Assembly (NCBI GenBank): GCA_048938105.1 | Contig: JBHLMN010000009.1 | Coordinates: 128,001-192,000, forward strand | Length of the DNA: 64,000 bases | From: Promethearchaeota archaeon | GTDB taxonomy: Archaea > Asgardarchaeota > Heimdallarchaeia > Hodarchaeales > Hodarchaeaceae | Direction: 5' to 3' | In this document: positions 6,292 to 26,900 of the stretch, in pieces | Position numbering within the stretch: position 1 is the first letter of the stretch | How the letters are laid out: each line of letters opens with the position of its first letter | Position numbers and translations under genes: made by a program | The notes under the pieces: model-generated | What the model saw: the letters and a program-made list of their open reading frames with translations, nothing else | What the model was told of the DNA's origin: nothing | Databases searched by the model: none

Positions 6292-7035
6292 TTGAAAATG
6301 AATGATTATCAATTAGCAGTGGAATGGATTTTAGAATCTAAATATACTGTTCTTTTTACTGGAGCAGGAGTTTCTGTTGAAAGTGGAATTCCGCCATTTC
6401 GGGGGGAAAATGGATTATGGAGTAAATATGATCCAACCTTTTTAATGACAAACTATTTTAAGAAACATCCAAAGGAATCTTGGAAATTAATAAACGAGAT
6501 ATTTTATAAATTTTTTAGTCGAGCAAAGCCTAATCAGGCACATTATATTATTACAGAGTTAGAAAAAAAAGGGTTAATTGATATAATAATTACTCAAAAT
6601 ATTGATAATCTTCATCAAAAAGCAGGAAGTAAGAATGTTATTGAATTTCATGGGACTTCAAGGACATTAACATGTATAAATTGTAAAAGACGTTTTGATA
6701 ATGATAAATTTTTAAATAAGTTACCACCACATTGCCCCAAATGTAATGGTCTATTAAAACCCGATTTCGTATTTTTTAATGAACCAATTCCATTGCAAGT
6801 TCACGAACTTTCAAATAAATGTGCTTTAATGTCCGATTTGTTTATATTAGTTGGGACTACTGGAGAAATAATGCCTGCTTCTTTAATTCCATATTTTGCA
6901 AGAGAAAAAGGAGCAAGAATTATTGAAATTAATATTATTCCTACTAAATATACTGATAGAATAGTAGATGTTTTTTTAGAAGGAAAAGCAACAGAAGTAT
7001 TCCTGAAATTAAAAGAATCTTTAGATGTTATTTAA
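6292..7035 (+). CDS. cobB: Sir2-family NAD-dependent protein deacylase
   Basis: TGAGVSVESGIPPFRG, TQNIDNLH, FHG, two CxxC, VGTTG. Confidence 0.93.
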   Translation: MKMNDYQLAVEWILESKYTVLFTGAGVSVESGIPPFRGENGLWSKYDPTFLMTNYFKKHPKESWKLINEIFYKFFSRAKPNQAHYIITELEKKGLIDIIITQNIDNLHQKAGSKNVIEFHGTSRTLTCINCKRRFDNDKFLNKLPPHCPKCNGLLKPDFVFFNEPIPLQVHELSNKCALMSDLFILVGTTGEIMPASLIPYFAREKGARIIEINIIPTKYTDRIVDVFLEGKATEVFLKLKESLDVI

Positions 7036-7097
7036 GAAATTAGAAACTCTAATAAGATTTAGATTAATAGACTTCAATGGTCGAATCTCTTCATAGC

Positions 7098-8015
7098 TCA
7101 TTTTGTTGTGTAAAGAAGCCCGAAAAGTATTCCTCCTCCTATACTAGTGAGGATTACAGTTTTCCACAGAAGAAGAGCTGCATCACGATTTTTTCTCCTT
7201 GCTAAATTACAAGCTAATACTAGTTCTATAGCTCCTAGTAAAAAAGGAATGAAATTCGGTATAAGGATACCCTCATTCATTAGTATCAGATTAACTATAG
7301 CAAATCCAACCACTCTAACACATATAATCGTAGAAGTGAGATAAGAAGCTTTATTCCACCCCAAAAGGACGGCTGTGGTCATTTCACCATTTTCTTGGTC
7401 TACTTCTAGATCTGTTAAAATGGTAGGTAAATGTATTCCTGTCACAAGTAGGATACAAAGAACAACGCCGTAGAATAATAACTGAGTGTCGACAATGGTG
7501 TCAAATCCTAATAATCCTATATAGAATGGAATAAAAACGCCAATTATTAGAACTGTGACAATTAAATCAAAATATGGCCTTGCTTTGAATCTCAAGGGAG
7601 GTACTGAATAACTAATAGATCCTCCTGCAGCTAAAAAATATGCCCCAAAAGCAAGCGGAAGTTTAGGAAAAGTTAATGAATTAGGGATAAAAAATATGTT
7701 TAAAGGAATAACTAAGAACCACAATATACCTACCCACAGATAAATTATTTTAGATGAAAGAAGATTTGAGGAAATAAGGGGATTCCGGAGAGAAAAACCA
7801 CGGGGATTTATTGTATCAGAATCTTTGTCAAAAAAACCATTAAGACTGAAATGACCGCAAGTAAATGCATATATGGATAACCAAGCCACTGAAAGCGAAG
7901 TTAAGGGTAATAGATATAAAAGACTTAACATGTAGGCCACACCAGCAAAAATAAACCCCCATTCGGGCCGGGAAAGAGTAAATAACTCCTGAATGATTCG
8001 TAAAGCTTTTTTCAA
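7098..8015 (-). CDS. UbiA-family prenyltransferase
   Basis: Multi-TM; LSRP, NGFFDKDSD..NP, YSVPPLRFK, DLEVD..G..T. Confidence 0.85.
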   Translation of the reverse strand: MKKALRIIQELFTLSRPEWGFIFAGVAYMLSLLYLLPLTSLSVAWLSIYAFTCGHFSLNGFFDKDSDTINPRGFSLRNPLISSNLLSSKIIYLWVGILWFLVIPLNIFFIPNSLTFPKLPLAFGAYFLAAGGSISYSVPPLRFKARPYFDLIVTVLIIGVFIPFYIGLLGFDTIVDTQLLFYGVVLCILLVTGIHLPTILTDLEVDQENGEMTTAVLLGWNKASYLTSTIICVRVVGFAIVNLILMNEGILIPNFIPFLLGAIELVLACNLARRKNRDAALLLWKTVILTSIGGGILFGLLYTTK

Positions 8016-8039
8016 AGATTAATGCACCATAAAGTAGCG

Positions 8040-8546
8040 TTAAAGTTGTTTCATCAATTGAAAACCTGAATCTGTTGTCTGAACTACCTTATAACCAAGT
8101 GTTTCATAAAGGTGTTTTGCTATCTTATTTTGTTTGAAAACATGAAGAACAATTTTGTTTAATCCTATTGCTTCTACTTCAGTTTCTAATAATTTCAAAG
8201 CTTGTTTTGCGAATCCTTTTCTTCTATGTTCTTCAAAAATGATAATATCAGCAATAAGCATAACCTGTTTCATAAATGATTCGGGAGACGGCCAAAACCA
8301 GATGTAACCTACTCTTTCTTTACTTCCCTTTTTTATAATAAAATTAAAAAATCGATCGGGAGTTTTAAATCCTTCGGGAAGTGATCTCATATAAGCAGTT
8401 TCTGCATGTTTCATCGCAGCTTCGTGGTTAAGGTTAAAAAGGTCGGAAAGCTCCTTAGCAACCTCTACTAACCGATGAGAATAGATCTCCTGAAAATCTC
8501 TCTTGGTCATTTTCTCAAAAAAGATCATATCAGATATTCTCTCCAA
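8040..8546 (-). CDS. GNAT-family N-acetyltransferase
   Basis: IFEEHRRKGFAK acetyl-CoA motif; LHVFKQNKIAKHLYETLGY. Confidence 0.9.
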   Translation of the reverse strand: MERISDMIFFEKMTKRDFQEIYSHRLVEVAKELSDLFNLNHEAAMKHAETAYMRSLPEGFKTPDRFFNFIIKKGSKERVGYIWFWPSPESFMKQVMLIADIIIFEEHRRKGFAKQALKLLETEVEAIGLNKIVLHVFKQNKIAKHLYETLGYKVVQTTDSGFQLMKQL

Positions 8547-9255: not shown

Positions 9256-12200
9256 CTAAGAGCAATTAACACAACGTGCAACTACTTCTTCATTTTTTAT
9301 CTTAACTTTAACCCTACCACATTCACTGCAGACCAATGCTTGACATTTTTTACAGGTAGACATATGATCAGGGCAAAAAGATCTGTGACAACCATCACAA
9401 GTCTTAGCAGTACTCTTCCCTTCTATTTGCCCACATTCAGGACAAGTGAATAAGTAGTCACCTTCACATTCCTCACATACAGGTTTCTGCTCAGTATGAC
9501 CCATCTTGTAAGGAACTTTCTCACTAAAGCCCTTTCCACAGACGATACAGGTCCAAGAGTGATCATTACAGAGGATTCCACCTGTTGATTCGTCAACAAC
9601 ACCACAAGTAGTACATAACGGCTTCTTACAAACAACACATTCCTGTGAATGGTCAATACAAACTTTCTTCCCGCAATCAGAACAAAACACAATATGCTCA
9701 CTGCAGAATGTCTTTAAGCATTCTAAACAAATAAAAGTAGGAGGAGATATTTCTGATTCTAGTAAGGATTGATAGTAATTCTCGGTACTAACTTGAGAAC
9801 CACATCCATCACAAGTAATATCAGCATTCCCATTATATAAGTTTAAGTTGATTATAAATTGCCTTTCTGGCCCCTCCTCCACGTTATCCTTCTTTAGTAC
9901 TATAGGTACCAATAATCTGGGAATCCAATATATAGCTTTTTCAGAAATGGAAACATCGGCCTTTCCTGGGCGAAGAAAATCTTGGGGAACCCCTCTCGCC
10001 TTTAACCTCGCGATTGCCTTATGAAATTCCTCATAAGCGGCCTCTTGCTCCTTCATTAAGTCTTGTCGCTGACTTTCTATATCTTTAATTTGATCACGTA
10101 GTTCACGAATTTTTTCTTCATGTCTTGTTATTTTTGTTTCACTAGATTCGATTGAACGTTCGGTCGCTTTACTTGATTTACCTTCAGCATCACGAGCGCG
10201 TTTCTCCGCTTGGAGTGTCTCCAATCTTATCATCGTTTCATCTAATTTTCGGTTCTCATTTTCCATCCTTTCTTCGAGGCGGCTTATTTGAGAGGATAGT
10301 TTTGATAATTCTTTTCTTACTTTTCTACCAGCCAATTTCTCAACTTCATTCTTCTCAAACTCTCGCAATTGATGATGATATATTACCTCTGCTTCCTTGA
10401 AAGGATTCTGTGTAAAATACCATATTATATTATCAGGTAATTTAGTAATAATCTCCTTATCGAGTTTATAAAACTGCACTCCATCCATTGGCTGGATTTG
10501 TAAGTCAGTAGGGGGTAATGCTGACGCATGAATCCCTTCAATCGTTGTAGCATTCCATTCAATCTTCCTACTTAGATCAAATGATCGGGTCATTTCTTCT
10601 GTAATGGCTACAGGAAAATCTAGACCCCCTTCTTTGATTGTCCGCTTAATGTTAATCTGAGTTGTTGAGTAATAGAGAGGCGAATAAAAATTCGTTGTAT
10701 TTCTAAACTGAACAGAAAATCCATCAATTTCAGGCTCCCCACTTATACTTAATCGATTAAAAATAATATTATCTAGCTGTTTTCCCTTTATTGGTATTTT
10801 AGGGTTAAGAAATCGTTCTGTGATTTTCCCCGTTGCTGGCTTTTTCTTACTGAATTCGAATTCTATTTCTGGCGCTTCTTCTACTACTTCAGCTTCAATA
10901 ACTTCTTTTTTTGGTTTTTTTCTCTTCGTTGGTTTTGGTGGTCTAAGCGTCAAAACTTTAATTTCATTATCCGTTAAAGGGCCTTTATGAAGACTAAGGA
11001 GCCATCGAGTTTTTAACCTATTCACTCCATATTTTGGATTATAAGCAATAAAATTACCTGGCTTTAGAGCTCTAATCTGCCCCATTAATTTTGAGAATTC
11101 TTCTGGTGTTCCACCAGCTCCTTCAAAAACTGGTTTCAATGCTCCTTCGACCTTTGCAATATCCTGATTCGTAGCTAACCTTCCTAAAACCCAAGTTGCA
11201 ATATTTGAAAGTCCACGATAGTCAAGGTCTCCGGGGTTTTGCGTGGCTAATACACAACCCAAACCTGCTGCCCGCGCTTGTTTCAAAATTATTAATAATG
11301 CGGTTTTAGAGGGTGGGCTTAGTGCACCAGCTGGCATAAAACCATAAAGTTCGTCAAAATAGAGTATTGCTCGTAAACGACTCGTACCGCCTTTCGACCA
11401 CGCCCATCTTTGTATTTCTCCTAATATTTCAGCAACGAAATTATTTTTTTCATCTGTGTCAGTTATCTTACGTAGATCAAAAACAATTATCGGTGTTTTG
11501 TTTTTCTTTTTAGCTAAAGCAATCATTTTATCAAAGTCTAGATCTACTCCAGGTACCGCCCGTACCATAAGCGCATTGATGTTCCTTGCCAATTCTGATC
11601 TCTTAGTTTTAGAAATAAACTTATCAACTTCTAAAGAACCAACCTTTTCGAATGGTGGGTTTTGAATACCCTCTATAAGTTGATCCAGTTCCACATTCCT
11701 TTGTTTACCTTCCTCCCAATAATTTCTGATAAGGTTACTCAGAAAAATTACTCTGTTATCAGTTGAAGAACTTGTCCCAATCCCACAGCGAGAGAGTAAT
11801 AACTGAATTTTGAGATCAAGGGTACTTAAAAGAGCATCAGGAGATTCAGTCATCAATTCATCATAGTTTGGTGGTTTTTCAAAGTTTGGAGTCAATGAAA
11901 TTTGGACACCTGCAGAATTTTTAGGGGTAATAAGAATGACAGCTACCTTATCAGAAAAATCTTTCTCAATATCTGCATATTCATCCCCAAAAGAGTCTTC
12001 TAGCTTGTCTTGATAAAGTTCTATCCATTCTTCAGCTATTTGTCTAGGATCTCCGCCCCCTCGATCTTCAGCTTCTACTTCCGCATGAACTAGCAACTTA
12101 TCTTTGGTGAATTCACCAAGTCCGATGCCAAGGGCACCAATATCTCCCTTTGGATCAACAGCAATAATGGGAATGTCCGCTCGAATCGCTTCCTCTACGA

Positions 12201-12348
12201 TAGACTTACATACTACAGTTTTCCCAGAACCACTCGCACCCAGAATAGCTGCATGAGTTAAAAAGGTAGTACTCGGTATTTTAAACTGCTCTTCCCCAAT
12301 TCTTCCTAGATAGAACTCTGGATCTGACATATCAACACCATTAACCAC
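9256..12348 (-). CDS. HerA/FtsK-superfamily (DUF87-like) P-loop ATPase with coiled coil and C-terminal Cys/His zinc-finger array
   Basis: THAAILGASGSGKT (Walker A), VDPKGD, LYFDE (Walker B), KQARAAGLGCVLATQNP; heptad-rich region; repeated CxxC...CxxH at the C-terminus. Confidence 0.85.
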   Translation of the reverse strand: MVNGVDMSDPEFYLGRIGEEQFKIPSTTFLTHAAILGASGSGKTVVCKSIVEEAIRADIPIIAVDPKGDIGALGIGLGEFTKDKLLVHAEVEAEDRGGGDPRQIAEEWIELYQDKLEDSFGDEYADIEKDFSDKVAVILITPKNSAGVQISLTPNFEKPPNYDELMTESPDALLSTLDLKIQLLLSRCGIGTSSSTDNRVIFLSNLIRNYWEEGKQRNVELDQLIEGIQNPPFEKVGSLEVDKFISKTKRSELARNINALMVRAVPGVDLDFDKMIALAKKKNKTPIIVFDLRKITDTDEKNNFVAEILGEIQRWAWSKGGTSRLRAILYFDELYGFMPAGALSPPSKTALLIILKQARAAGLGCVLATQNPGDLDYRGLSNIATWVLGRLATNQDIAKVEGALKPVFEGAGGTPEEFSKLMGQIRALKPGNFIAYNPKYGVNRLKTRWLLSLHKGPLTDNEIKVLTLRPPKPTKRKKPKKEVIEAEVVEEAPEIEFEFSKKKPATGKITERFLNPKIPIKGKQLDNIIFNRLSISGEPEIDGFSVQFRNTTNFYSPLYYSTTQINIKRTIKEGGLDFPVAITEEMTRSFDLSRKIEWNATTIEGIHASALPPTDLQIQPMDGVQFYKLDKEIITKLPDNIIWYFTQNPFKEAEVIYHHQLREFEKNEVEKLAGRKVRKELSKLSSQISRLEERMENENRKLDETMIRLETLQAEKRARDAEGKSSKATERSIESSETKITRHEEKIRELRDQIKDIESQRQDLMKEQEAAYEEFHKAIARLKARGVPQDFLRPGKADVSISEKAIYWIPRLLVPIVLKKDNVEEGPERQFIINLNLYNGNADITCDGCGSQVSTENYYQSLLESEISPPTFICLECLKTFCSEHIVFCSDCGKKVCIDHSQECVVCKKPLCTTCGVVDESTGGILCNDHSWTCIVCGKGFSEKVPYKMGHTEQKPVCEECEGDYLFTCPECGQIEGKSTAKTCDGCHRSFCPDHMSTCKKCQALVCSECGRVKVKIKNEEVVARCVNCS

Positions 12349-12560
12349 ATTAGAAAGATTAAATATTAATTAATATGATTTAAGAGTCTGTAATTCGAAA
12401 ATACATAAAGTAAGCTATTAAATAAACTTTATCAAACTGAGCTTAGTTATCATATGATATATTAAAAAATTCCTCTTAATTAATGCTAAAGTACTTGGAA
12501 GATACTTAAGTCCCTCAGGAATGCTTTATAGTATTAGGTTTAAAACCCACGGACTCTTCT

Positions 12561-13175
12561 GTGAATATAAATCGCGTCAGGATAGGTCGAACATTGGTCA
12601 ACATTGGTATTTTAGGAACAATGAATTGCGGAAAAACATCAGTCTTCGTGTCTTTTATGAATTCTTTAGCTAGCTCGGATGAAAAAATCATTGCTGGCGC
12701 CCCAGGTGGCCCAGAAATGTATACAACGCAGACAGTCGATTTTATTAGATTTACGTCAAAAGGATTCATCCATGTTCTCTATGGCACTGGTGGGCATCAA
12801 ACTCCTATCACTGATTATTATCGTGTTTATGTCTTAAGAAATGCTAATCGATTTCTTTGTATGTTTGATCTAAGTGAGGATCTTGAAGAACAATTTGAAT
12901 TTTATCGCGGATTTGATATTCCAACCAAATCAATTGTTGTTTATCTGAATAAATATGATCTAGCTCCTGAAAATTTGAAAAATTATCAAGAAAAAGTAAG
13001 TTCTTTCTTTATTAATGAGAAGAAAAAACTCATCAAAGATATTTTCCCAACAGTTGCATTAAGAACTGCTGATGAAGAACATGAGGAATATAAACAGAAT
13101 TGTTTGAAAGGGATATTAAGTCTATGTGATTTTGATCGGGATGCTTCTGCTTTTGATGTCTGGGAGGGGCAATAA
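12561..13175 (+). CDS. Small GTPase, MglA/CvnD/Arf-like
   Basis: G1 GTMNCGKT, G2 TTQTVDF, G3 LYGTGGH, G4 NKYD. Confidence 0.8.
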   Translation: MNINRVRIGRTLVNIGILGTMNCGKTSVFVSFMNSLASSDEKIIAGAPGGPEMYTTQTVDFIRFTSKGFIHVLYGTGGHQTPITDYYRVYVLRNANRFLCMFDLSEDLEEQFEFYRGFDIPTKSIVVYLNKYDLAPENLKNYQEKVSSFFINEKKKLIKDIFPTVALRTADEEHEEYKQNCLKGILSLCDFDRDASAFDVWEGQ

Positions 13176-13205
13176 GAGTATAAGAAAGATATAGGATCAG
13201 ATAGT

Positions 13206-14117
13206 ATGACTTCCGAAGAAGATCCTTTTATTAAGCTTGTCGAAACATTAACAGTCTTGGAAAACTATAACCGAGCTCTTTGTCTAATAGCAGTATATTT
13301 AGGCCAAAGGGCTGATCAGAATACTGTTCAAGGAATTACAGATATTTTTTCAGCACTTTTGGGAAAAGAAACCGCAGCTACCCCCACAAAAGTTCGTGGT
13401 TTAATCACTTCATTAGTGAATGTTGGCATCCTTGAACGTGAAAGAGTAAAAATGATCAGTTCGACAAAGGTTTCTTTCCATTCAATTAGCTCTTTGGGTC
13501 TAATTACTTTATTATACATTTTAATTATTTATCTTATAAAAGATCCAATGCATGGAGTAGAATGGGATAACTTGATGTTTGTAGGATATATTTCTGGTGA
13601 TCGAGAGGATAATCTTGTCCGATTCCTAAACAATTCAATCATTGAGAGTAATAGAATAACAGAAAGATTTTGGACATCATTAAAAAGTGGAAAAGAACCA
13701 AAGAAGATTAGGATGAGTAAACCACTCGATTTAGATGTAATGAAAACCTTCAGTGGGAAAGGTGGTATTGACACTTTCAAGATTTTAGAAGAATTAGTGT
13801 GGGATCATCTGAATCTAAATACTGGCATTTCCCAAGATGAATTAGCAAGTCATTTTGAAGGATCAATAACAAGTAATCTCAAGAAATTAACTCCTCTTGC
13901 TTTAGAAGAACAATTAAACAAATCCAAGTATTATCGATTGTCTTCTTTAGGAGTATTTATTTTACCAGTTTTAGCATTAATGATAAAGGAATTATCAGTT
14001 GATCAGTCTATTTTCCAATCAATCCTGACAAAGGATGTAAACACAGAGGAAAATCCATGGGTTGTATTAATACGCCAAGCACGCTTCTTTTTCAAGAATT
14101 TGTATAGAATTCCTTAG
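13206..14117 (+). CDS. Hypothetical protein with two probable winged-helix units
   Basis: Two segments with wHTH-like pattern, ending HSISSLG and YRLSSLG. Confidence 0.55.
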   Translation: MTSEEDPFIKLVETLTVLENYNRALCLIAVYLGQRADQNTVQGITDIFSALLGKETAATPTKVRGLITSLVNVGILERERVKMISSTKVSFHSISSLGLITLLYILIIYLIKDPMHGVEWDNLMFVGYISGDREDNLVRFLNNSIIESNRITERFWTSLKSGKEPKKIRMSKPLDLDVMKTFSGKGGIDTFKILEELVWDHLNLNTGISQDELASHFEGSITSNLKKLTPLALEEQLNKSKYYRLSSLGVFILPVLALMIKELSVDQSIFQSILTKDVNTEENPWVVLIRQARFFFKNLYRIP

Positions 14118-14288
14118 TCCTAATTCTATAAATCCTTTTTTATTTCAAAGGTTTAATTTAATCAAAAAGACAAAAAATACTTGAGTTCATAACTTCAATA
14201 AATTTAATTAATTCGCAGGTAATAGATTACTGCTGTCGTAAACATCATCCCATTTGTGTTAACGAAGTACCCTAGGCTGTGATACAAC

Positions 14289-15683
14289 GTGATTGTCGTC
14301 TTAGATGAACAAGATTCACCATTTCATCTTCCTCTAGTTGATTTTCACACTCACATCGGTAGAGTTAAGATTGAGACTACAAAAGGGGCCTCCCAAAGAA
14401 TAAATCGTCCCCAAGATATCATCAATCTTTATGAAAAATTGCAGTATGAAATACATAGACGTATTTCTCTGAACCAATCAGATTATTATGTTACTCTACC
14501 AAAAGCAGAAGAACTTTCAAATCCTTTACTCCCTGCTGTACAGAAGTTATTAGAATTGAATAGTACTAAAAGTCGAGGATGGATCGTTGATCATATCGTT
14601 TGCTTCCCGTTTAATGATATTTTTCATACAAAGACGTCTCCAAAATTTATTAAAAGTAATCAATATGTACGTCATCAAACACAATCCTTTGATTTTTCAT
14701 TTCGGTTTATTCCATTTTGTAGGGTAGATGTGACTGATGAAGGAGCTGCTGAAGAGGTAAAGAACTCTATTGGTTTAGGAATGAGAGGATTGAAACTCCA
14801 CCCTATGTCACAAGGTTGGATCGAGAGCATTGTGTCATCCGCCTGCAAAGAGGTTTTACAAACAGCGGGAGAGCTTTCAATACCAATCATTTTTGATGTT
14901 CCTAATAAGGGAGTAGCTGTTGACATTACTACAATAGCAGAAGAAGCACGACAAGAGGTTGATTTTCCAATCAATGTCGTCTTAGGTCATTCTGCTTTTG
15001 ACTATAATTCGAAAGAAATCTTTGAATGTTTAACAAAAGATGAAATGTTTGCTGAAACATCAGGAATGAGGGGAAAAGATGTTGAGATTTATTTCAACAA
15101 TGTTGTAAATGTAAAGGGATGGGAAAATAAATTACTGTTTGGAACAGATTCAAATTACTTTGGTGTCTTACAGGCAGCTGATTTCATCACTTTTCTTTTA
15201 TCACAGAAATTTAAAGAGCTAGTTGAAAATACTAGCTCTAATATTGAACCATTAGATGCAGCTGGGAGAATACTTGGAGGTAATGCTCTTAAAATTATTC
15301 CCCCATCTTGGTTCAATAATTCAATTCCACTGAAAAAACATCGTTCGAGCTCTAAAGGATATTCAACAGATTTACTAATTTTACGATCAAATCTAAAAAA
15401 GATTCTAACAAAACAGAACAACACGGGAACAATTGATCTTGCTAAACCGCAGAGAAAAGAGATTTCGATTCAAGTTCTAACTATTGGGCAATTAGACAAA
15501 AAATTCTCTTATATTCTTGAAACTAAGGACAATTATCAAAATATCACACTCAGTCCAATTTCTAATCTTGATAGAATTAATGATTTACCCATAAAATCGC
15601 TAAGCCCTGTTGAATTGATTTCTAAATCGCGGAAAAGGAAACCACGCTTAAAAGATCAAACATTTCTTGAATTATTGGGGTGA
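14289..15683 (+). CDS. Amidohydrolase_2-type TIM-barrel metallohydrolase with C-terminal extension
   Basis: VDFHTH, GLKLHP, VVLGH, LLFGTDS, ILGGNA. Confidence 0.85.
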   Translation: MIVVLDEQDSPFHLPLVDFHTHIGRVKIETTKGASQRINRPQDIINLYEKLQYEIHRRISLNQSDYYVTLPKAEELSNPLLPAVQKLLELNSTKSRGWIVDHIVCFPFNDIFHTKTSPKFIKSNQYVRHQTQSFDFSFRFIPFCRVDVTDEGAAEEVKNSIGLGMRGLKLHPMSQGWIESIVSSACKEVLQTAGELSIPIIFDVPNKGVAVDITTIAEEARQEVDFPINVVLGHSAFDYNSKEIFECLTKDEMFAETSGMRGKDVEIYFNNVVNVKGWENKLLFGTDSNYFGVLQAADFITFLLSQKFKELVENTSSNIEPLDAAGRILGGNALKIIPPSWFNNSIPLKKHRSSSKGYSTDLLILRSNLKKILTKQNNTGTIDLAKPQRKEISIQVLTIGQLDKKFSYILETKDNYQNITLSPISNLDRINDLPIKSLSPVELISKSRKRKPRLKDQTFLELLG

Positions 15684-18646
15684 ATCGCTTGACTAATAAA
15701 GAGTACACACTTAAAACGGAATTATATTTCACCCACGGAATTGAAATAGAGAACCATTTAGTTTCACGAAAAACAGGGGAAGTTATTGTAGGAGATGAGC
15801 TTCTCAACGCGTGGGAGAAAATGTTTTCTGGAGCAGCAGAATTCTTACAGAAATTGAGAAAAGATAAGCACGTTCCTAAAGAAATCTTAAAGAAAATCGA
15901 AAAAGTAGAAGTTAAAGAAGAGGTTAAGAGAGAAAGACGGTTAAAATTCGTCTTTGTCAACTATAAGCTAGGAAAAAAGACTATCCGAGTCAATGTATTT
16001 GGGCCAGATCCCAATATTGGTCAAATCACTTGGTTACTCGAACTGGTGACTCCTCCTTGTGAGTATTTAGAGGAATTGGATTTCTGGATCGATACATTAT
16101 TTGCAGCAGGCCTTCAAGGCCTACCCTCTGATGTAGCTTTACTTCCGATTGGATTAAATCCAACAGAAAAAAGGGTAAGGAGTGGATTGACATGTGGAGA
16201 ACATCATCATATTGGGATGCCAAAACAAATACGTATTCCTATATATAATATGCTTAGAAATTATGTACCTCATTTAATCGCTCTTAGCACAACATCCCCA
16301 TTTTTAGATAAAAAACCAAGTGGTAAGGTTTTGATTCGAAAAACTGATGGAAAAAAACAGATTATAGGAAGATGTGTCCATTCGTACCGATTACTGAAAA
16401 ATAGTGGTCAAATGGGACCAAATATACCTAGTTATCTCCCCGTATTAGATAACAAGTCTACTAGAATGGATTTCGCTAAATCAGTTAGAAAGGCTCCTCC
16501 AGATGACCGAATGGTTGATTTGTATCCTTTTACTGATTACTCTACGATAGAAATTCGTTTTTTTGACGCTCAACCTTGGCCCGAGATCCGCTTGGCCATC
16601 GTACTCTTGATTCAAGCTCTTGCACAGAAAACAAAGAATTTAATTGAGAATAATGAAGAAGTCCCTAAAGTAGCATCCCGATGCCTTTACGAAAACCGAA
16701 GAAAATCTGTGCAATTTGGTCTACTTGCCCAATTTACCACTGACGATAATTTGGCTGATAACTTTTCCAAATTTTACAATTATGATATAACTACTGGTAA
16801 AAAAGCTTCAAAATTGATGCATTCCATAAAATCTTTGTTAGTTTATGTTCAGCATGAGCTCGAGGGATTTGGATCGGAGTTGGTGAATTATATTCTAATA
16901 CCTATCCTTGGTTCTAATGATTATGATCCCCCTCTCACTGTAGCAGAATATTTACTTTCTTTATACAAAATTGCTGATGATATTTCCTTCTTACCAGATT
17001 TATATTATTCTAAAGAAAATAGCTATCCTTTAGTTGTTGCCAGTGATTATACTTCTCTTCAACAGGTGGAAATAACGGATAAAATTGAAGAGACAGAAGC
17101 ATCCCTTCAACAATCATTACGTAAGGATTTAGCTAAACGGAAAATTTCAATCCCAAAAGTAGAGAAAAAACCAGTAAAACCTAAGGGAAAACCTCCTAAG
17201 AAACCACCTAAGAAGAAAGTTCCTCGGAAAAGACCAAAGAAAAAGGAGATTGAGAAACCTGTTATTACACCCACAATAAAGGTCGAAAAGCCACCAACTT
17301 TAGCAGCAATAAAAACTAGAAAACATGTTCCTAAGCCAATTCCACCTCCTACTGAAGAACCAATTGAAACAACAGAAGGGGAAATTAAAATATCTGCTTT
17401 TGAAGATAGTGAGGACCTCGAAGTATTCTCACCAACGATAGAAGTTGAAGCTAAATATCAGAAAATTGAATCTAGAATAGCAAATGTCATGCGAACTCGA
17501 CGTAAAGAAATAGAAGTAAAAAGGCGAGAATTTTTCTTAGATCATCTTAAAAAAGAACGTGTGGCTTTTAAACCCTCTCCAAAAAAGGTTGCCCCTATCT
17601 TTCCAGCCTTAGTATCAGGACCAGAAATATTTGGATACATTGAAATCAGTTTTCGTGATGTTAAAAGAGCCATGTATAAATTTCGAAATAATCCCATCAC
17701 ATTAATATTCAAAGCCAAAGAAAAAGGAAAACCAGTGAAGTCAAAGATAAACACCTCAATAGATATAGCCAGTCTTGAAGAAAGAGGAATGACTAGAATT
17801 CCATGCTCAATAAACCTGGGTGAATTATATGGAGATATAACGGTGAATATAGAGGCAGTTACTGCAACAAACGAAAGCCTATTACCAAAAAAGTTCTCAT
17901 TTAATCTAATCCGCAAGGATGAAATAGCAATAAATCCAAAAGAATTCTATGTTACTGGGAATTATGGCCTTGTAGAGTGTATCTTTCAAGCGGTCAATGA
18001 ATCAAAAGATTCAGAAAAAGGAGAACATGAAGTATTCCTCGTGACCCAGGCTTTAACAGATCCAGTCTTAATATCTTATACAAAATTTAATTTGAAACCT
18101 AAAGAAAATCTAGAACTAGCTCGGAGTATCGATTTATTAATAAATTATCAACACACACCCTTTTACATAGTATCTCAAATCACAATCGGACGATTTAAGA
18201 AGAATAGGTCATTTAAGACAATTGGACCAATAAAACCACTGAAAGAAATATGTGTAGATTGGAATTTCACGGTTGACCCAACAAAAAGAACTAATCTCTG
18301 GGAAGGAGTAGAACCAAAAAAGCAGTATGAAGTGAACTTTGTATTCCATTTTATTAAATCAATGCCGTATGCAACTATAACAATTCATGTGAATACTCTC
18401 CCTGGGGGGCAAACAAAACGATTAGTAAATTTTCGAATCAAAAGAGACATTGATGCAGGGGATGAATTCATCATACCGAATATTAAATTTAAAACACCAA
18501 AAGATTGTGGTTATCTCTATTTTGATGTTGAAATACGCAATGAAATGGGATTAATTCCACTGGATCTCATTTCTGGTCCAATTGGAGTCCAAAGTAAAGG
18601 TGAACAGGCAGCTACATATGAAGAGAGACTTGATTTGACGTTATAG
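15680..18646 (+). CDS. GCS2/YbdK-family carboxylate-amine ligase with Lys/Pro linker and large C-terminal extension
   Basis: THGIEIE, ELVTPP, CGEHHHIG, LIALSTTSPF, TIEIRFFD; GTGA overlap with the amidohydrolase. Confidence 0.8.
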   Translation: MNRLTNKEYTLKTELYFTHGIEIENHLVSRKTGEVIVGDELLNAWEKMFSGAAEFLQKLRKDKHVPKEILKKIEKVEVKEEVKRERRLKFVFVNYKLGKKTIRVNVFGPDPNIGQITWLLELVTPPCEYLEELDFWIDTLFAAGLQGLPSDVALLPIGLNPTEKRVRSGLTCGEHHHIGMPKQIRIPIYNMLRNYVPHLIALSTTSPFLDKKPSGKVLIRKTDGKKQIIGRCVHSYRLLKNSGQMGPNIPSYLPVLDNKSTRMDFAKSVRKAPPDDRMVDLYPFTDYSTIEIRFFDAQPWPEIRLAIVLLIQALAQKTKNLIENNEEVPKVASRCLYENRRKSVQFGLLAQFTTDDNLADNFSKFYNYDITTGKKASKLMHSIKSLLVYVQHELEGFGSELVNYILIPILGSNDYDPPLTVAEYLLSLYKIADDISFLPDLYYSKENSYPLVVASDYTSLQQVEITDKIEETEASLQQSLRKDLAKRKISIPKVEKKPVKPKGKPPKKPPKKKVPRKRPKKKEIEKPVITPTIKVEKPPTLAAIKTRKHVPKPIPPPTEEPIETTEGEIKISAFEDSEDLEVFSPTIEVEAKYQKIESRIANVMRTRRKEIEVKRREFFLDHLKKERVAFKPSPKKVAPIFPALVSGPEIFGYIEISFRDVKRAMYKFRNNPITLIFKAKEKGKPVKSKINTSIDIASLEERGMTRIPCSINLGELYGDITVNIEAVTATNESLLPKKFSFNLIRKDEIAINPKEFYVTGNYGLVECIFQAVNESKDSEKGEHEVFLVTQALTDPVLISYTKFNLKPKENLELARSIDLLINYQHTPFYIVSQITIGRFKKNRSFKTIGPIKPLKEICVDWNFTVDPTKRTNLWEGVEPKKQYEVNFVFHFIKSMPYATITIHVNTLPGGQTKRLVNFRIKRDIDAGDEFIIPNIKFKTPKDCGYLYFDVEIRNEMGLIPLDLISGPIGVQSKGEQAATYEERLDLTL

Positions 18647-18748
18647 ATGAAGAGTCAGTTTTTTTTGATATAAAATTAGTTTAAAAAAGATTAAGAATAC
18701 TGAAGTAGAATAATGTTAGTTAATGATTAAATTTGAAGAGGCTTAATT

Positions 18749-20032
18749 ATGGTTAAACTTAATGTTGTAAATGTTGGGAAGATCGAAGGTCGTGCATATT
18801 TACATCCGTCTGACATTAGTAGCGTTGGTGTTGAAGAATTTGATTTTGTTAAGATTTCAACAGAATGGGAGGATTGGGGGGCAGTTCAAATCCTATCATC
18901 TGATGAAGTTAGTAAGGGAACAATTGCTGTTGATGATAGTGTGTTAAATTCAGCTAATATTTCGGACGGAGACGTATGTGAAGTAGAACCTGCAAAAATC
19001 GCTGCAGGTATTAAATCAATTAAACTTGGGATTGAACCATTAGCAGGCCAAGAAGTCGAGGAAGCAATCTTATGGATTGCTACTGAATTTGAAGAATTAT
19101 CAAATATTCTTCGAAATCGGCCTGTATTTTCAGGATTACAAATTGCTTGGGAAGACTGTCCTATAGGTAGCATAACAGTCAGATTTATGGGCTCGGAACC
19201 AGCCATCCAAGAAAATGAGATTGGTATTGTCGATCCTACTGGTCGTGAAGTTGAAATAAACATCATTCCATTTACTGAAATGAGCTTTAATGCCGTTTTA
19301 GTACTTGATGTTTCAGGTAGTATGCAAAAAAAGGATATGAAGGTAAAGAATATTAGTGGGGCTTTGGAAGGACTTAAAAAAGGTTTAGAGGAGACCGGCG
19401 AACTAAATACATTTATTGAAAGGTTTGTAGATGGAAAAAAGGTGTCTCGCGTTGATGCCGCGGCCATGGCAATTATGTTATTCATGAGCCTGAAGATAGC
19501 AAAAGGGTGGGGTGAACAAGTCCAGCTTATAACCTTCTCTGGGGATGTGGAAAAATTCACTCTGGGTGATTCACAAGTGATTTCTTGTGTTGGTGAAACC
19601 AAAAAAGCTGGAATTGAAAGCATTATCGGTCACGTCGTCCAAAAAACCGAAGAAAGTTCAGGGCTTACATTTCTCAGTGGAGCTCTTGATGAAGCATATA
19701 GCAGTATTGAGAATTTTGATGAAAATCCCACCATTAACAAGCGAAATCCAACGATGATCATTGTACTTACCGACGGTAACCCAAATAAAGGCAATGGCCT
19801 AGGAGTAAATCCAATTCCCGTGGTTAGAAAGAAGGTTGAGGAAAATCCTGAAGCTGTTCTGTATGCAATCGGACTAGGAGAAGCTGATAGGCTGATGCTT
19901 CGTCGTGTTGGAGAAATTGGCCGAGGGGGATCATTGATGGCAGATGATCTCGAGACACTCATTGATTTTTACGATTCATTAGCTCAGAATTTCCAAATGG
20001 TAGTTAAAATGAAGAAACAGGAAGTAGAGTAA
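18749..20032 (+). CDS. Cdc48/VAT N-domain-like region fused to a vWA domain
   Basis: N-terminal GRAYLHP..GV..FDFVKI..GTIAVD..NANISDGDVCEV resembles a double-psi barrel; MIDAS DVSGS, T, LTDG. Confidence 0.75.
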   Translation: MVKLNVVNVGKIEGRAYLHPSDISSVGVEEFDFVKISTEWEDWGAVQILSSDEVSKGTIAVDDSVLNSANISDGDVCEVEPAKIAAGIKSIKLGIEPLAGQEVEEAILWIATEFEELSNILRNRPVFSGLQIAWEDCPIGSITVRFMGSEPAIQENEIGIVDPTGREVEINIIPFTEMSFNAVLVLDVSGSMQKKDMKVKNISGALEGLKKGLEETGELNTFIERFVDGKKVSRVDAAAMAIMLFMSLKIAKGWGEQVQLITFSGDVEKFTLGDSQVISCVGETKKAGIESIIGHVVQKTEESSGLTFLSGALDEAYSSIENFDENPTINKRNPTMIIVLTDGNPNKGNGLGVNPIPVVRKKVEENPEAVLYAIGLGEADRLMLRRVGEIGRGGSLMADDLETLIDFYDSLAQNFQMVVKMKKQEVE

Positions 20033-20210: not shown

Positions 20211-21740
20211 GTGGGATTAATGCCTCAATTTATAATACGCGAAATCACGATAGAACCAAAAGATATCGTTATAATCTCTCGAATTAATAACGAACACCTT
20301 GTTACACAGGCAAAATTTATTCTTTCTTTTGGTCAGAGAAAAATTACACCTGAGCAGGTACTTAAAGTAGAGAATTGGGTTGGAGAAGATGAAATAGGCC
20401 TATCACACTCTCTGATTAAGAGTCTAGGAGCTAGCGAAGGGGATGAAGTAGTTCTACAAACGCAAAGCCATTCTGCTTCAACAAGCTATTCTTTAATAAA
20501 ACAACGGATTTTACAACCAGGTAAAACATTCAATAAAGCTGAAATTGATCAAATTATCGGCGATATTACAAGCGGAACCCTCACTCCTTTAGAATCGTCA
20601 GTTTTTATAACATCACAGATGTTTCAAGAATGGAATATTTCTGAAATTGAATATTTGACCAAAGCTATTGCATGCTCAGGTCAAACAATAGATTGGAAAG
20701 ATCGTATTATTTTTGACAAGCATAGCTTAGGTGGTGTCCCAGGAAATAAAGTTTCTCTGTTGATTGTACCAATTATTGCTGCGGCTGGATTGACAATTCC
20801 CAAAACAAGTAGTCGTGCTATTACTAGTCCTTCTGGAACAGCGGACACAATGGAAGCTTTGGGTTGTGAGATTGAATTTTCTATTGATGAAATAGTTGAA
20901 ATCACTAGCCGTACTAATGGACTCATTGCTTGGACAGGAGGACTCAATATTGCCCCAGCTGATGAGAGGATTATAAGAGACGTCCAGTTTCCTTTAGGTA
21001 TTGATCCTGAGCCAATGATGATGGCATCAGTCCTTGCCAAAAAAGTTGCTATGGGTATACACTTTTTAGTGTTGGATATTCCAACTGGAATTGGGACTAA
21101 GGTTGAGAATATGAAATCGGGGAAAAGAATAGCGCATAGATTTGCGGAATTAGGCCAAAATCTTGGTATTCGAGTAGAAAGTGGAATAACTTATGGAAGT
21201 AGTCCTGTAGGTCATGCGATTGGTCCTGCTCTTGAAGCTCGTGAGGCATTAAATGCACTGATTAATCCTCAACTAGCCTCAGATTCGTTAATCGGAAAAA
21301 GTACCTCACTTGCAGGAATTCTTCTAGAAATGTCTGGTAAAGCGATTCGAGGTAGAGGTCAAGATTTGGCACTTGAAATAATAAATTCAGGTAAAGCGTA
21401 TAGAAAGTTCCAAGAAATCTTGGAGGCACAAAATGCAGATCCTAAGATCCAACCAGAAGATATTGAGGTGGGGGAATGTATGTACGAATATATCGCTCCT
21501 CAAAGCGGTTGGATTGTGGAGATTAACAACAACGTTATTTCAAGAGCAACACATGCAGCTGGAGCCCCAATGGATAAGGGTGCTGGGATTCAATTTCTCA
21601 AAAAGAAAGATTCTGTTAAAAGAGGAGAAGTTATATTTCAGTTATATGCTCCTAATGAACAAAAATTACGAGCAGCGGAATCGGAATTAGTAAAAAATGT
21701 TCCTTTTATAATCGAAGGCATGTTACTTGCTCGTGAATAA
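20211..21740 (+). CDS. deoA: AMP phosphorylase (archaeal nucleoside monophosphate phosphorylase)
   Basis: DKHSLGGVPGNK, IPKTSSRAITSPSGTAD, GPALEAREAL; about 500 aa with N-terminal extension. Confidence 0.92.
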   Translation: MGLMPQFIIREITIEPKDIVIISRINNEHLVTQAKFILSFGQRKITPEQVLKVENWVGEDEIGLSHSLIKSLGASEGDEVVLQTQSHSASTSYSLIKQRILQPGKTFNKAEIDQIIGDITSGTLTPLESSVFITSQMFQEWNISEIEYLTKAIACSGQTIDWKDRIIFDKHSLGGVPGNKVSLLIVPIIAAAGLTIPKTSSRAITSPSGTADTMEALGCEIEFSIDEIVEITSRTNGLIAWTGGLNIAPADERIIRDVQFPLGIDPEPMMMASVLAKKVAMGIHFLVLDIPTGIGTKVENMKSGKRIAHRFAELGQNLGIRVESGITYGSSPVGHAIGPALEAREALNALINPQLASDSLIGKSTSLAGILLEMSGKAIRGRGQDLALEIINSGKAYRKFQEILEAQNADPKIQPEDIEVGECMYEYIAPQSGWIVEINNNVISRATHAAGAPMDKGAGIQFLKKKDSVKRGEVIFQLYAPNEQKLRAAESELVKNVPFIIEGMLLARE

Positions 21741-23922: not shown

Positions 23923-26900
23923 ATGTCAGAAATTCAAAAAGAGCTATCAAAAGCTAAAACAAATGAAGATGAAGGGAATTTTGAGAAAGCTGCTCAAAAC
24001 TACTTCAAGGCAGCTAAGCTGACAAATGATCTCAAACTTTACAATAAAGCCTTTTTTACTGCGAGAAAATCTGGTAGTACCAATCTAATGTTCCAAACAG
24101 GAAAAAACTACTACGATATATTAGATCAAGAGGATCAAGAGGAGAAGATTAAAGAATTAATTCCAACGTTCTTGGAAGTTTCGGGTCGTGAACGAGATCG
24201 TTTGTCTGAATCCCCAGAGGAAATGATTGAGGTTCTAGATTGGACTACTAAATTGTATCAACTAGTAGGAAAAACAGATGCTGCTTATGATATCTCTTTA
24301 CAAACTGGAGACTCTTATTTTTCTTATGGGCAGCACCTCTTAACTACAAAAGCGAGATTAGGCAAGGAAGAAAAATGGCAAAGAGGATTAGAGCTATTTG
24401 AAAAAGCTGTGGAAGCTTTTCAGAAGATAAGGTTAGATAGGCAATCGCTTGAGAAAATTCTTGAAGTTAAGCTTGATAAAATAAGCAAATTAATCGACAT
24501 TAATCGTCATGTGGAGGGGATTGAAGAGACTTCAACTTTAATGGAATTTTATAGATCTCAAGCAGCAGAAATTGTTCCGTATTCCCATGAAGTTTTGTCC
24601 CTAAAGATTGCTGAAACTTTAGCGGATAAAAGTCTTGTTGCTGCCCGAGATAAACAATTTACTATTGCAGATGTGTTAATGAAGTCAGCAAAGGCAGGTT
24701 ATGAGAATGCAGGGGAGTTTATTAAAGTAGCTCCTTATTTGTGGCAGTTAGCAGTAATTTATGATGAATTTGATCAAAAAGAACTCTTTTTCTCTCTTGT
24801 AGACACAACTTATGACACAGTTTTGAAGTATGAGGATGAATCAATCCAACAAACGATTTTAAATTATCTAGACAATCAAGCAAAAAGCATTTGCTCAAAA
24901 ATCATCAATTCTCGTCTTCTAATGGTTAAGAAAGGCCCAATAGAATTCCAAAACAATGATGGTGTGCAGTATTTATTAAAAAGTATAGATTTGGCTAAAA
25001 AAATTAATAATGTTGACATTCCTGACAAAGCACTTGAATTTCTCTTTCAATATGCGCAAACCATGTATGACAAGAAATTAACAAAGCGTTCTCTTCCTTA
25101 CTTAGAATTTTGCGCTCAAAACTGGTGGACCTTACCAGAAAGATCAAATAAGACACATGAAATCATTGCCTACCTAGAATCAAAATTTGGGAATTTAATC
25201 ACCGAGGGTAAATTTAATAAAGCATCAAGGCACCTTAGATGCATAATTTCGATTAAAATCTTTATGGAGGATTTTGAAAGTGCTGGAACTTCCGCCTATT
25301 CATTTGCTCAATCAGCAGGCCAGCAAGGAAAACAAGAGATAGAATTGGAATTTCTAGAACAGGCTTATGATGCTTTTAATTCTGTAAAAGCAACAAAGAA
25401 TTTACAGGATATGCTTAACTATGTTAACCAACAGATGGAACCACTTTTTAATTTGGATTCCAAATCACAAGAACCCAGAGAGAGTTTCATTCATTTAGGA
25501 GAATTAATTGCTGCAGCAATATCAGAAGAAACTCAAGGAGATTTTTTTCAGGGCACTGCCATAAAAGCTCTCAATTCTGGGTTAATTGACTTAGGAATCA
25601 GCTTTACTGATAAAACATTTGAAGTTCTGAAGACTTATGATCAACATGCTGCTGCTGATTTCTACTTCAATGTGGGCTCTATTCTGTTAGAAACTGATAT
25701 GGAAAAAGCATTTAATTTTATTTCAAAATCAACGGAATTTGCAACAAAATATGAACCCCTAAAGGATCTTGTAGATCGTAATCTTGATTATATCCAAAAT
25801 AATGCACTTACAAGTACTGATCTATCTGTTAAAATATTTTTAGTAAAGAAATTGGAACTTCTCTATGAAATAGTTGAGAGAGGTGATGTATTCAATGAAT
25901 TCCTTTTCATATTAGCTCAAAACCTCTCTGAAAATACAAAACAACCAAATTACTTCACTGAAATGAAGAATTATCTCTCTAAGTCTTTTTACGGTTTCCA
26001 TACTCAAGACCCTAATCATCCAAAACTCTCTGAGATCATTACATGGACAAATAATCACATTCTTGAAGCATATACGGATACAGAACATACTCAAATGTAT
26101 GAGCTTGCTATCCAAAATTTAGCATTTCATAAAGAATTGAACCAAATCCAAGAATATATTAATTTCTTTTGGGACCTTTTTAATAAGTTTGTATCAACTG
26201 AGGATTTCCCTCACGCAGTTGCTTATTTCAAACAGTTATATGAAACCCTTGATCAGTTAGAGCAACACACTGAAATTAAAAAGGAAATCACAGAGCAAGT
26301 AGCATCAAGTATAGATCGAGGTATCAAACCACGGATAGCTGATGAAAAATTTGATGAAGCTTGGCCTATCATTGAAGGATTATTCTCAATACTTGAGGAA
26401 GTAAATTCACATTCAGAAGCGATAAACCTTTATCAAACCAATGCTCAACTTTTTGCACCTCATCGCTTAGATCTAGCTTTAACTATGTGGAGTCAAGCTA
26501 TTAACAAAGCTAAGACAATTAACGATACTGATGACATAACCACTATTACAAAGGTTATTATTGATGATATTATACCAATTTATCTTGAAAGAGGAATTCC
26601 ACGGGCAGTAAACCAATTGTATTCCCAGGCTGCTTCTGCTTTCAATGCCTTAGGAAATAGCGCTGCTATGCTAGAAGCCATGCTAAATGTAACTAGGTAT
26701 AACTTATCTTTAAGTGATTTTGAAGCTGTTCATCAACTTGGGAAAAAAGGATTTGATTTAGCCACTAAATTTAAACTTGATGAACCACTGTTTGAATTCG
26801 CCAATATGTTTTTTGCAGTGGGCAGCGGCTTGTTAGTAGAAGATCCTGAGACTGGAGTCGAGTTGATAAAAACTGCTTCAGATTACTTAAGAGATTATGG

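Follow-up and report, generated by a model that had tools for sequence, protein, structure and literature searches.

Six neighbouring genes at positions 9256–20032 of a 64,000-nucleotide stretch of DNA from a Promethearchaeota archaeon of the Hodarchaeales (the window; contig JBHLMN010000009.1, host assembly of 5.85 Mb) raise the question of whether they work together, and at what. An initial annotation, made from the sequence alone, had read them as one candidate protein-tagging or signalling system, with a HerA-like ATPase as motor, a small GTPase as switch, a GCS2-type ligase as writer, an amidohydrolase as eraser and a protein carrying a Cdc48 N-domain and a vWA domain as reader. Among known archaea, the Asgard group is the one most closely related to eukaryotes, and it holds much lineage-specific gene content without an assigned function. 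Comparison of the locus across this phylum points to a smaller unit: the hydrolase, the ligase and the vWA protein form an Asgard-restricted, conserved three-gene module, whose catalytic residues and metal ion-dependent adhesion site (MIDAS) are intact in the window. That this trio is a functional unit appears highly probable. The link among its members is supported by gene neighbourhood, phyletic pattern, co-duplication, hydrolase-vWA fusions and a predicted interface, and on these grounds the proposed co-function of the three was borne out. The features of the trio, including a vWA protein that starts with a double-psi beta-barrel (DPBB), are as follows.

14289–15683, plus strand: amidohydrolase-fold enzyme of 464 amino acids (core gene 1), with a weak Amidohydro_2 match and conserved metal residues
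15680–18646, plus strand: GCS2/YbdK-type ligase of 988 amino acids (core gene 2), above the Pfam cut-off for GCS2
15680–17059, plus strand: N-terminal GCS2/YbdK domain of the ligase, residues 1–460, recognised by Pfam, NCBIfam and a PDB profile
17090–17359, plus strand: Lys/Pro-rich polybasic linker of the ligase, residues ~471–560, seen from composition and variable among lineages
17357–18646, plus strand: tail of the ligase, residues 560–988, a long helix with a beta-sandwich array in an AlphaFold2 model and by Foldseek
18749–20032, plus strand: DPBB(Cdc48N-like)-vWA protein (core gene 3), with no ATPase domain, recognised by Pfam and a PDB profile

Distribution and inheritance of the trio

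The gene layout was found as first described, with all six open reading frames in place. The GTG start of the ligase and the TGA stop of the hydrolase share the GTGA at 15680–15683, and intergenic gaps of 171 bp (14118–14288) and 102 bp (18647–18748) precede the hydrolase and the vWA gene, respectively.

For the comparison, 36 loci were taken from other Asgard families (designated here by f-numbers), the ligase and the vWA protein were tallied over 300 genomes of the phylum, and the hydrolase was tallied in a sample of 150 genomes, outside which family f29 falls. Across the phylum loci, only the genes for hydrolase, ligase and vWA protein travel together. They are adjacent in families f12, f23, f10 and f29 and lie within about 6–10 kb in f4, f11 and f27, in several gene orders. 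Ligase and vWA protein gave identical family tallies (f1, f4, f10, f11, f12, f14, f23, f27, f28 and f29; 170 and 171 genomes); the other 20 families yielded neither. The families with the hydrolase match these except for f27, where none of two genomes had it at an E-value of 1e-15. The trio occurs in most sampled genomes of ten Asgard families, and its presence alternates even inside one class, of which f1 and f4 have it and f2, f3, f5, f6 and f7 do not.

Two full trios each are present in the genomes G044 (f12) and G073 (f23). Trees calculated for the ligase domain, the hydrolase and the vWA protein recovered the same clades, and the paralogous trios split alike in all three; the trio was therefore duplicated and inherited as a unit. 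The type A clade unites f1 and f4 with a single copy from each of f12 and f23. Type B consists of f11, f10 and f28 and of the other f12 and f23 copies, which stand as a group of their own; type C, with a short ligase, comprises f14, f27 and f29. In three loci the hydrolase is fused to the DPBB-vWA part in one protein (L044:14532–17162, 876 aa; L039:13971–16493; L032:17914–20000). Both the HxH motif and the MIDAS have been lost from the L044 fusion, and the MIDAS from the L039 fusion; because of this motif loss they look like non-catalytic paralogues. Judged from their sequences, the fused proteins look like catalytically dead scaffolds kept near an active trio.

No paper on a hydrolase-ligase-vWA module was found in the literature. 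In public annotations the trio proteins appear as ‘glutamate-cysteine ligase family protein’, ‘VWA domain-containing protein’ or ‘hypothetical’. The window's own assembly also has, on another contig of 4.5 kb (L024; G000:C60:1–4510), genes for a coiled-coil protein, a hydrolase and a short-form ligase. This ligase and hydrolase nest in the f14 clade on short branches, and the contig is probably a contaminant (assembly contamination 7.25%) or a recent transfer rather than a true second module.

Domain structure of the trio proteins and their predicted complex

The hydrolase consists of a TIM-barrel core (residues ~1–345), with a conserved insert after the HxH motif (residues ~38–65), and a C-terminal extension of ~120 residues. 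Pfam Amidohydro_2 (PF04909) matches it weakly, at 18.5 bits against a cut-off of 26.4. A profile comparison with the PDB gave the amidohydrolase 3nur and the IDCase 4hjw as best matches (E 0.2), and a PDB search with the single sequence gave none. The residues H20, H22, K169, H171, D203, H234 and D287, corresponding to the HxH, K-x-H, D, H and D set of the amidohydrolase barrel, are kept in 13 of 14 aligned family members. Of the metal ligands expected on the barrel strands (HxH, His on beta-5 and beta-6, Asp on beta-8), H20, H22, H171, H234 and D287 are conserved. Across the whole hydrolase family D203 replaces the usual beta-5 His of amidohydrolases. The label of an amidohydrolase-fold enzyme is supported by the intact residues of this barrel type.

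The ligase is a protein of 988 residues with three parts. Its N-terminal domain is covered by Pfam GCS2 (PF04107) only at residues 166–215, at 24.8 bits against a cut-off of 21. A YbdK-family match in NCBIfam (E 1e-17) and a profile match to YbdK itself in the PDB (1r8g, E 5e-13, in three stretches) concur with this affiliation, and a single-sequence PDB search with the domain gave no match. The residues E22, E24, E121, H175, H177, E291 and R293 show no variation across 14 sequences from ten families and align with the motifs of YbdK. With a score above the Pfam cut-off and the Glu, His and Arg residues of the active site kept, the designation as a GCS2 ligase is sound. None of the equivalog cut-offs of NCBIfam (YbdK, glutamate-cysteine ligase) was approached, the best score being 63.8 bits against a cut-off of 371.

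YbdK/GCS2 enzymes (E. coli YbdK, 1r8g; Salmonella, 1tt4) are the best sequence match of this domain and have the catalytic fold and the metal- and ATP-binding Glu, His and Arg in common with it. YbdK is a single domain of ~370 residues, whereas the ligase of the window extends over a basic linker and a beta-sandwich array and has a hydrolase and a vWA adaptor as its fixed partners. By sequence it represents a distinct and much larger subfamily than YbdK. To our knowledge, the only activity known for YbdK-type enzymes is a weak gamma-Glu-Cys ligase activity. The linker (residues ~471–560) consists to 47% of Lys and Pro, and its richest window of 40 residues to 50% of Lys and Arg. Basic stretches like it were seen in family f4 and, N-terminally, in the short-form ligases. 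The linker was considered as a universal feature of the ligase and ruled out as such, the long forms of f11 being without it. The tail was modelled by AlphaFold2 with a mean predicted local distance difference test (pLDDT) of 85.4 and is all-beta after a helix at 40–66 (model numbering), that is, an Ig/FN3/macroglobulin-like beta-sandwich array behind a long helix. Top matches in Foldseek were the MG arrays of macroglobulin and complement, FN3 arrays and the C-terminal barrels of transglutaminases (E ~6e-9, low TM-scores); the modelled tail resembles these arrays only generically.

The vWA protein is composed of a Cdc48/VAT-N-like DPBB with a linker (residues 1–~175) and a vWA domain (residues ~180–420). 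The latter is recognised by Pfam VWA_2 (35.9 bits, cut-off 27) and VWA (31.2 bits, cut-off 23.8). Its MIDAS is complete, with D187, S189, S191, the Thr of the LTxMS motif (GLTFLS here) and D342, and is kept in the stand-alone copies of other loci. The DPBB was identified by a profile search of the PDB, in which designed and natural DPBB chains, VAT (1cz4) included, matched with E-values between 5e-7 and 0.04; the N-domain of AMP phosphorylase and archaeal vWA structures matched as well. The naming as a Cdc48-N/vWA protein is confirmed in so far as a DPBB is found by profile and is followed by a vWA domain with intact MIDAS. The N-domains of Cdc48/VAT and of AMP phosphorylase (1cz4, 4ga5) are thus alike with it in the barrel. 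Unlike Cdc48 and VAT, the protein has no AAA+ rings: neither an AAA+ domain nor a Walker motif lies behind its DPBB, and a vWA domain stands there instead. The CDC48_N score (27.4 bits) also remains under the Pfam cut-off of 35.1.

The closest solved relatives of the vWA protein are archaeal vWA proteins. It resembles vWA/MIDAS adaptors such as the ArnB type (5a8j), Rpn10 and MoxR-vWA in the use of a vWA domain with complete MIDAS as a docking module. It differs from them in having an N-terminal DPBB in place of FHA, UIM or AAA+ partners, and its predicted partner is a hydrolase, not an ATPase. No MoxR-type AAA+ gene was found in the neighbourhood of the window's trio or in 25 related loci.

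An archaeal-type AMP phosphorylase is encoded directly downstream of the vWA gene (window positions 20211–21740), and the NCBIfam AMP_phos model matches the DPBB at residues 3–105 of the vWA protein. A copying of the DPBB from the neighbouring AMP phosphorylase was considered and rejected, as the two proteins have no detectable pairwise similarity.

Hydrolase and vWA protein were predicted to form a complex. The interface score ipSAE of the model was 0.78 (runs 0.78, 0.78 and 0.80), and the best of three controls reached 0.00. Among solved complexes 58 of 80 attain the mark applied to ipSAE, and among mismatched pairs 2 of 110, a calibration that is only rough, own alignments having been used here. 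The runs had at least 75% of the contacts in common, and the partner had a pLDDT of at least 79. On the side of the hydrolase, the predicted interface is formed by the family-specific insert (residues 38–65) and the loops beside H22, H234 and D287, that is, by the catalytic face of the barrel. The vWA protein contributes its DPBB, the conserved loop E96-P97-L98 and the linker; the MIDAS residues lie outside the interface and are left free in the model. A docking of the hydrolase onto the DPBB and linker of the vWA protein is supported by the natural fusions together with this prediction. We know of no comparable complex.

HerA-like ATPase, small GTPase and other neighbouring genes

Three of the six genes were found to be peripheral to the trio or independent of it:

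9256–12348, minus strand: HerA-like ATPase, its open reading frame as in the initial annotation, divergent from the five plus-strand genes
12561–13175, plus strand: small GTPase of 204 amino acids, peripheral
13206–14117, plus strand: protein of 303 amino acids with no assigned family, peripheral, directly 3' of the GTPase gene in every case

The HerA-like ATPase consists of a P-loop part (residues 1–~480), a charged coiled region (residues ~655–800) and a Cys-rich tail (residues 851–1030). It is matched by DUF87 (31.3 bits, cut-off 23.2) and HerA_C (23 bits, cut-off 22) and by the structures of YjgR and HerA, and carries a Walker A motif (GASGSGKT) at residue 37 and a Walker B motif (ILYFDE) at residue 328. 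The last 180 residues contain 26 Cys in 11 CxxC motifs, and the label of HerA-like ATPase holds. Its distribution is another matter. The ATPase was found in f5, f7, f15, f17–f20 and f22, which are families without the trio, and was not found in the trio families f4, f10, f12, f14, f27 and f29. Beside its full-length orthologues in f19 none of the other five genes is present. Scattered and uncorrelated orthologues, which the initial annotation had named as a refutation, were seen for the HerA-like ATPase and not for the trio. As a candidate motor of the trio it was rejected on its phyletic distribution and on the context of its orthologues, which occur elsewhere without trio or GTPase.

The small GTPase has the motifs G1 (GTMNCGKTS), G3 (YGTGGH, unusual) and G4 (NKYD). 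Matches to GTPase families are weak; with GxxxxGKT and NKxD present, the label of small GTPase stands, the G3 motif being unusual. The protein is 70–92% identical within the genus, where 15 of 19 congeners have it. Relatives at 45% identity occur in f9 and f22, both without the trio. There they are always preceded by a conserved protein of ~215 residues of no known family (L056:7884–9077; L057:9080–10325; L058:8121–9366), with which they may constitute a partner pair in its own right. The gene of the 303-residue protein was found only in the window's genus, in all 15 of the 19 genomes that carry the GTPase. Its initial interpretation as a tandem winged helix-turn-helix protein could not be confirmed: no Pfam or PDB match was obtained, and profile comparison gave no internal repeat. 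The two genes represent a genus-specific pair that may regulate the trio here and is dispensable elsewhere.

A single six-gene system with a HerA ring motor and a GTPase switch draws some support from the genus itself. The layout is kept in most of its genomes, and in G006 (L054; G006:C337, 6463–12424) the AMP phosphorylase adjoins a divergent HerA (33% identity), followed by the UbiA gene, with none of the five genes from GTPase to vWA protein found at the locus, while HerA and flanks remain. Synteny within the genus is of little information, because the whole region is collinear together with its flanks. In G002 the genes are split between contigs: contig C56 carries HerA, two inserted genes, GTPase and 303-residue gene and then other genes, and contig C54 has the trio behind 7.4 kb of unrelated genes. 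This split and the distributions of HerA, GTPase and 303-residue gene largely refute the six-gene system, which we regard as very improbable. The HerA-like ATPase is an unrelated neighbour, and the six genes are two or three things that adjoin in this genus. The two genes inserted between HerA and GTPase in G002 (L047:6716–8859) encode an acyl-CoA:6-APA acyltransferase-like (AAT-like) Ntn-hydrolase and a tandem-GNAT acetyltransferase; judged by spacing, G017 has the same two-gene insert.

The ATPase also bears on a reading of the locus as a defence or conflict system around a HerA-linked or vWA-linked NTPase. Its N-terminal half matches the PADLOC models for HerA and mad8 (E 4e-16), and vWA domains are established components of conflict systems. 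The other five proteins match no PADLOC model, and no MoxR-type AAA+ or effector domain is present. The three trio trees agree, their clades follow the families and each genome has one copy or two, a pattern suggestive of mainly vertical inheritance. A defence role is therefore the most remote of the readings considered.

In related lineages the trio has other neighbours. A protein of ~220 residues, termed c3, is encoded directly upstream of the type B ligases. Its family is tiny, with 50 representatives among 1.84 billion proteins. The model of c3 (pLDDT 92) shows a helix of 48 residues on an alpha/beta domain resembling phosphorylases and zinc peptidases, with structural matches at Z 10–12.5 to pyroglutamyl peptidase, FGase-like proteins, M42/M20 peptidases and poly-gamma-glutamate hydrolase. 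These fold matches are tied, and no single family can be named. Since only one Asp and a GGG loop are conserved, and catalytic residues are not kept, c3 is probably not an enzyme. The type C ligase has no beta-sandwich tail, and upstream of it lies a protein of ~610 residues (c12) with a beta-sandwich-like start and an end domain homologous to c3 (hidden Markov model comparison, E 2e-6). No c3 was found in type A modules, that of the window included, and the window's genome yielded neither c3 nor c12, its long form. The 303-residue protein was tried as a relative of c3 and rejected (hhalign probability 0.2%).

A further protein of ~800 residues, with a coiled coil and a CarboxypepD_reg-like beta-sandwich, is encoded directly upstream of c3 and ligase (L040:6462–8879; L039:11560–13944); in L040 it ends in an EAP30/Vps36 domain (ESCRT-II-type winged helix; Pfam E 3e-19). 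Taken together, the trio has beta-sandwich, coiled-coil and winged-helix proteins as neighbours and not metabolic enzymes. Type A trios in f23 and f4 have a Ras-family small GTPase and a winged-helix/helix-turn-helix gene alongside (L033:12220–13472; L011:2476–4091), an arrangement reminiscent of the GTPase and 303-residue pair of the window. These GTPases belong to other families than that of the window and, Asgard archaea having many small GTPases, their position may be due to chance.

Two more observations concern the window outside the six genes. A UbiA prenyltransferase (within 6292–8546) is flanked by a Sir2-family deacetylase (6292–7035, plus strand) and a GNAT acetyltransferase (8040–8546, minus strand), possibly an acetylation/deacetylation pair or a chance arrangement. 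A protein of 1161 residues (23923–27408), with only a weak TPR match, is conserved and syntenic in the genus.

Possible function of the module

Enzymes of the glutamine synthetase/glutamate-cysteine ligase (GS/GCS) fold all activate a carboxylate with ATP. In the mechanism proposed here, the ligase would do the same and join the carboxylate to an amine on a target that is held or recruited by the beta-sandwich tail. The complex of hydrolase and vWA adaptor would recognise the ligase product and cut the amide bond, with the groove of the DPBB gripping a peptide segment and the MIDAS binding a carboxylate. The outcome would be a reversible amide mark, most simply of glutamyl type, on a protein or peptide.

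The likeliest reading of the trio, held with a confidence that runs from tentative to nearly even according to how strictly the statement is made, is a reversible amide mark on a macromolecule. It is favoured because an ATP site of the GS/GCS fold is tied to a hydrolase that sits on a DPBB of peptide-binding type beside a free, carboxylate-binding MIDAS, and because the module has beta-sandwich, coiled-coil and winged-helix proteins as its neighbours instead of metabolic ones. As a tentative proposal, the trio may be a new Asgard protein or peptide modification system in which the ligase writes, the DPBB-vWA protein reads via MIDAS and groove, and the clamped hydrolase erases.

Several points weigh against an amide mark of this kind. 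Among the open reading frames of the 25 loci no recognisable tag gene and no proteasome or Mpa gene was found, nor any link to a ring ATPase. In the intergenic gaps of the window an Rfam scan gave no match to a known RNA, no small conserved open reading frame was seen, and no open reading frame ended in a Pup-like motif. None of the findings shows that the target of the ligase is a protein and not a small molecule, and the hydrolase may prepare a substrate rather than erase a product. With Asp at the beta-5 position, its chemistry could differ from that of other amidohydrolases, as judged from the alignment. In f14 a distance of ~100 kb can separate the vWA gene from ligase and hydrolase (G221). 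Lastly, the genomes compared are akin, and phyletic counts overstate their independence.

A rival reading is a small-molecule route, in which the ligase would make a free gamma-glutamyl-type amide (a thiol, polyamine or solute derivative) that the hydrolase recycles or trims, while the vWA protein and the beta-sandwich tail merely organise or regulate the two enzymes. The nearest characterised relatives of the ligase, YbdK/GCS2 enzymes and glutamate-cysteine ligases, use free amino acids, Amidohydro_2 enzymes mostly act on small molecules, and that no tag gene was found fits as well. Yet the ~500 residues of beta-sandwich array and basic linker on the ligase point to macromolecular partners, as do the DPBB-vWA protein clamped on the hydrolase, the dead fused paralogues and the coiled-coil and winged-helix neighbours, and no other metabolic gene is conserved beside the module. 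As a whole, such a route is a somewhat unlikely explanation of the trio.

A parallel to the amide mark in known biology is the PafA/Dop pair of actinobacteria, where an amide ligase of the GS/GCS fold works alongside an amide hydrolase and both act on the same bond. The likeness extends to the outline and makes a logic of writer and eraser plausible here. In contrast to Dop, the hydrolase of the trio is a TIM-barrel metal enzyme and not a paralogue of the ligase, and no Pup-like, Mpa or proteasome gene lies beside the trio. The ligase itself had no Pfam Pup_ligase match at E 0.01, and no PafA or Dop chain appeared in its PDB profile search at E 1.

Dop deamidates Pup before its ligation by PafA, and also depupylates. 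By analogy, the hydrolase could deamidate or trim the carboxyl partner for the ligase, with the vWA-DPBB protein presenting the substrate. The hydrolase gene precedes and overlaps the ligase gene in the window, and in the model the adaptor sits on the catalytic face of the hydrolase, as such a preparatory step would have it. The gene order varies, the ligase lying on the opposite strand in most families and before the hydrolase in the short-form type, and hydrolase and ligase differ in fold, unlike Dop and PafA. A preparatory role is accordingly rather improbable, and the reversible amide mark on a macromolecule is retained as the preferred reading.

What is new here is the exclusion of HerA, the separability of the GTPase pair and the definition of module types by three congruent trees, together with an interface mapped to the catalytic face of the hydrolase with the MIDAS free, and the fold and rarity of c3. 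For annotation this means that the HerA-like ATPase and the GTPase should not be labelled as parts of the trio system. Were a small-molecule product to prove true, the trio would define an Asgard metabolite not yet known. If the amide mark on proteins is true, the trio would be a third, independent GS-fold route to reversible protein modification, an independent invention in parallel to pupylation and to eukaryotic glutamylation and deglutamylation, and would give a concrete gene set for cultivated Asgard strains.

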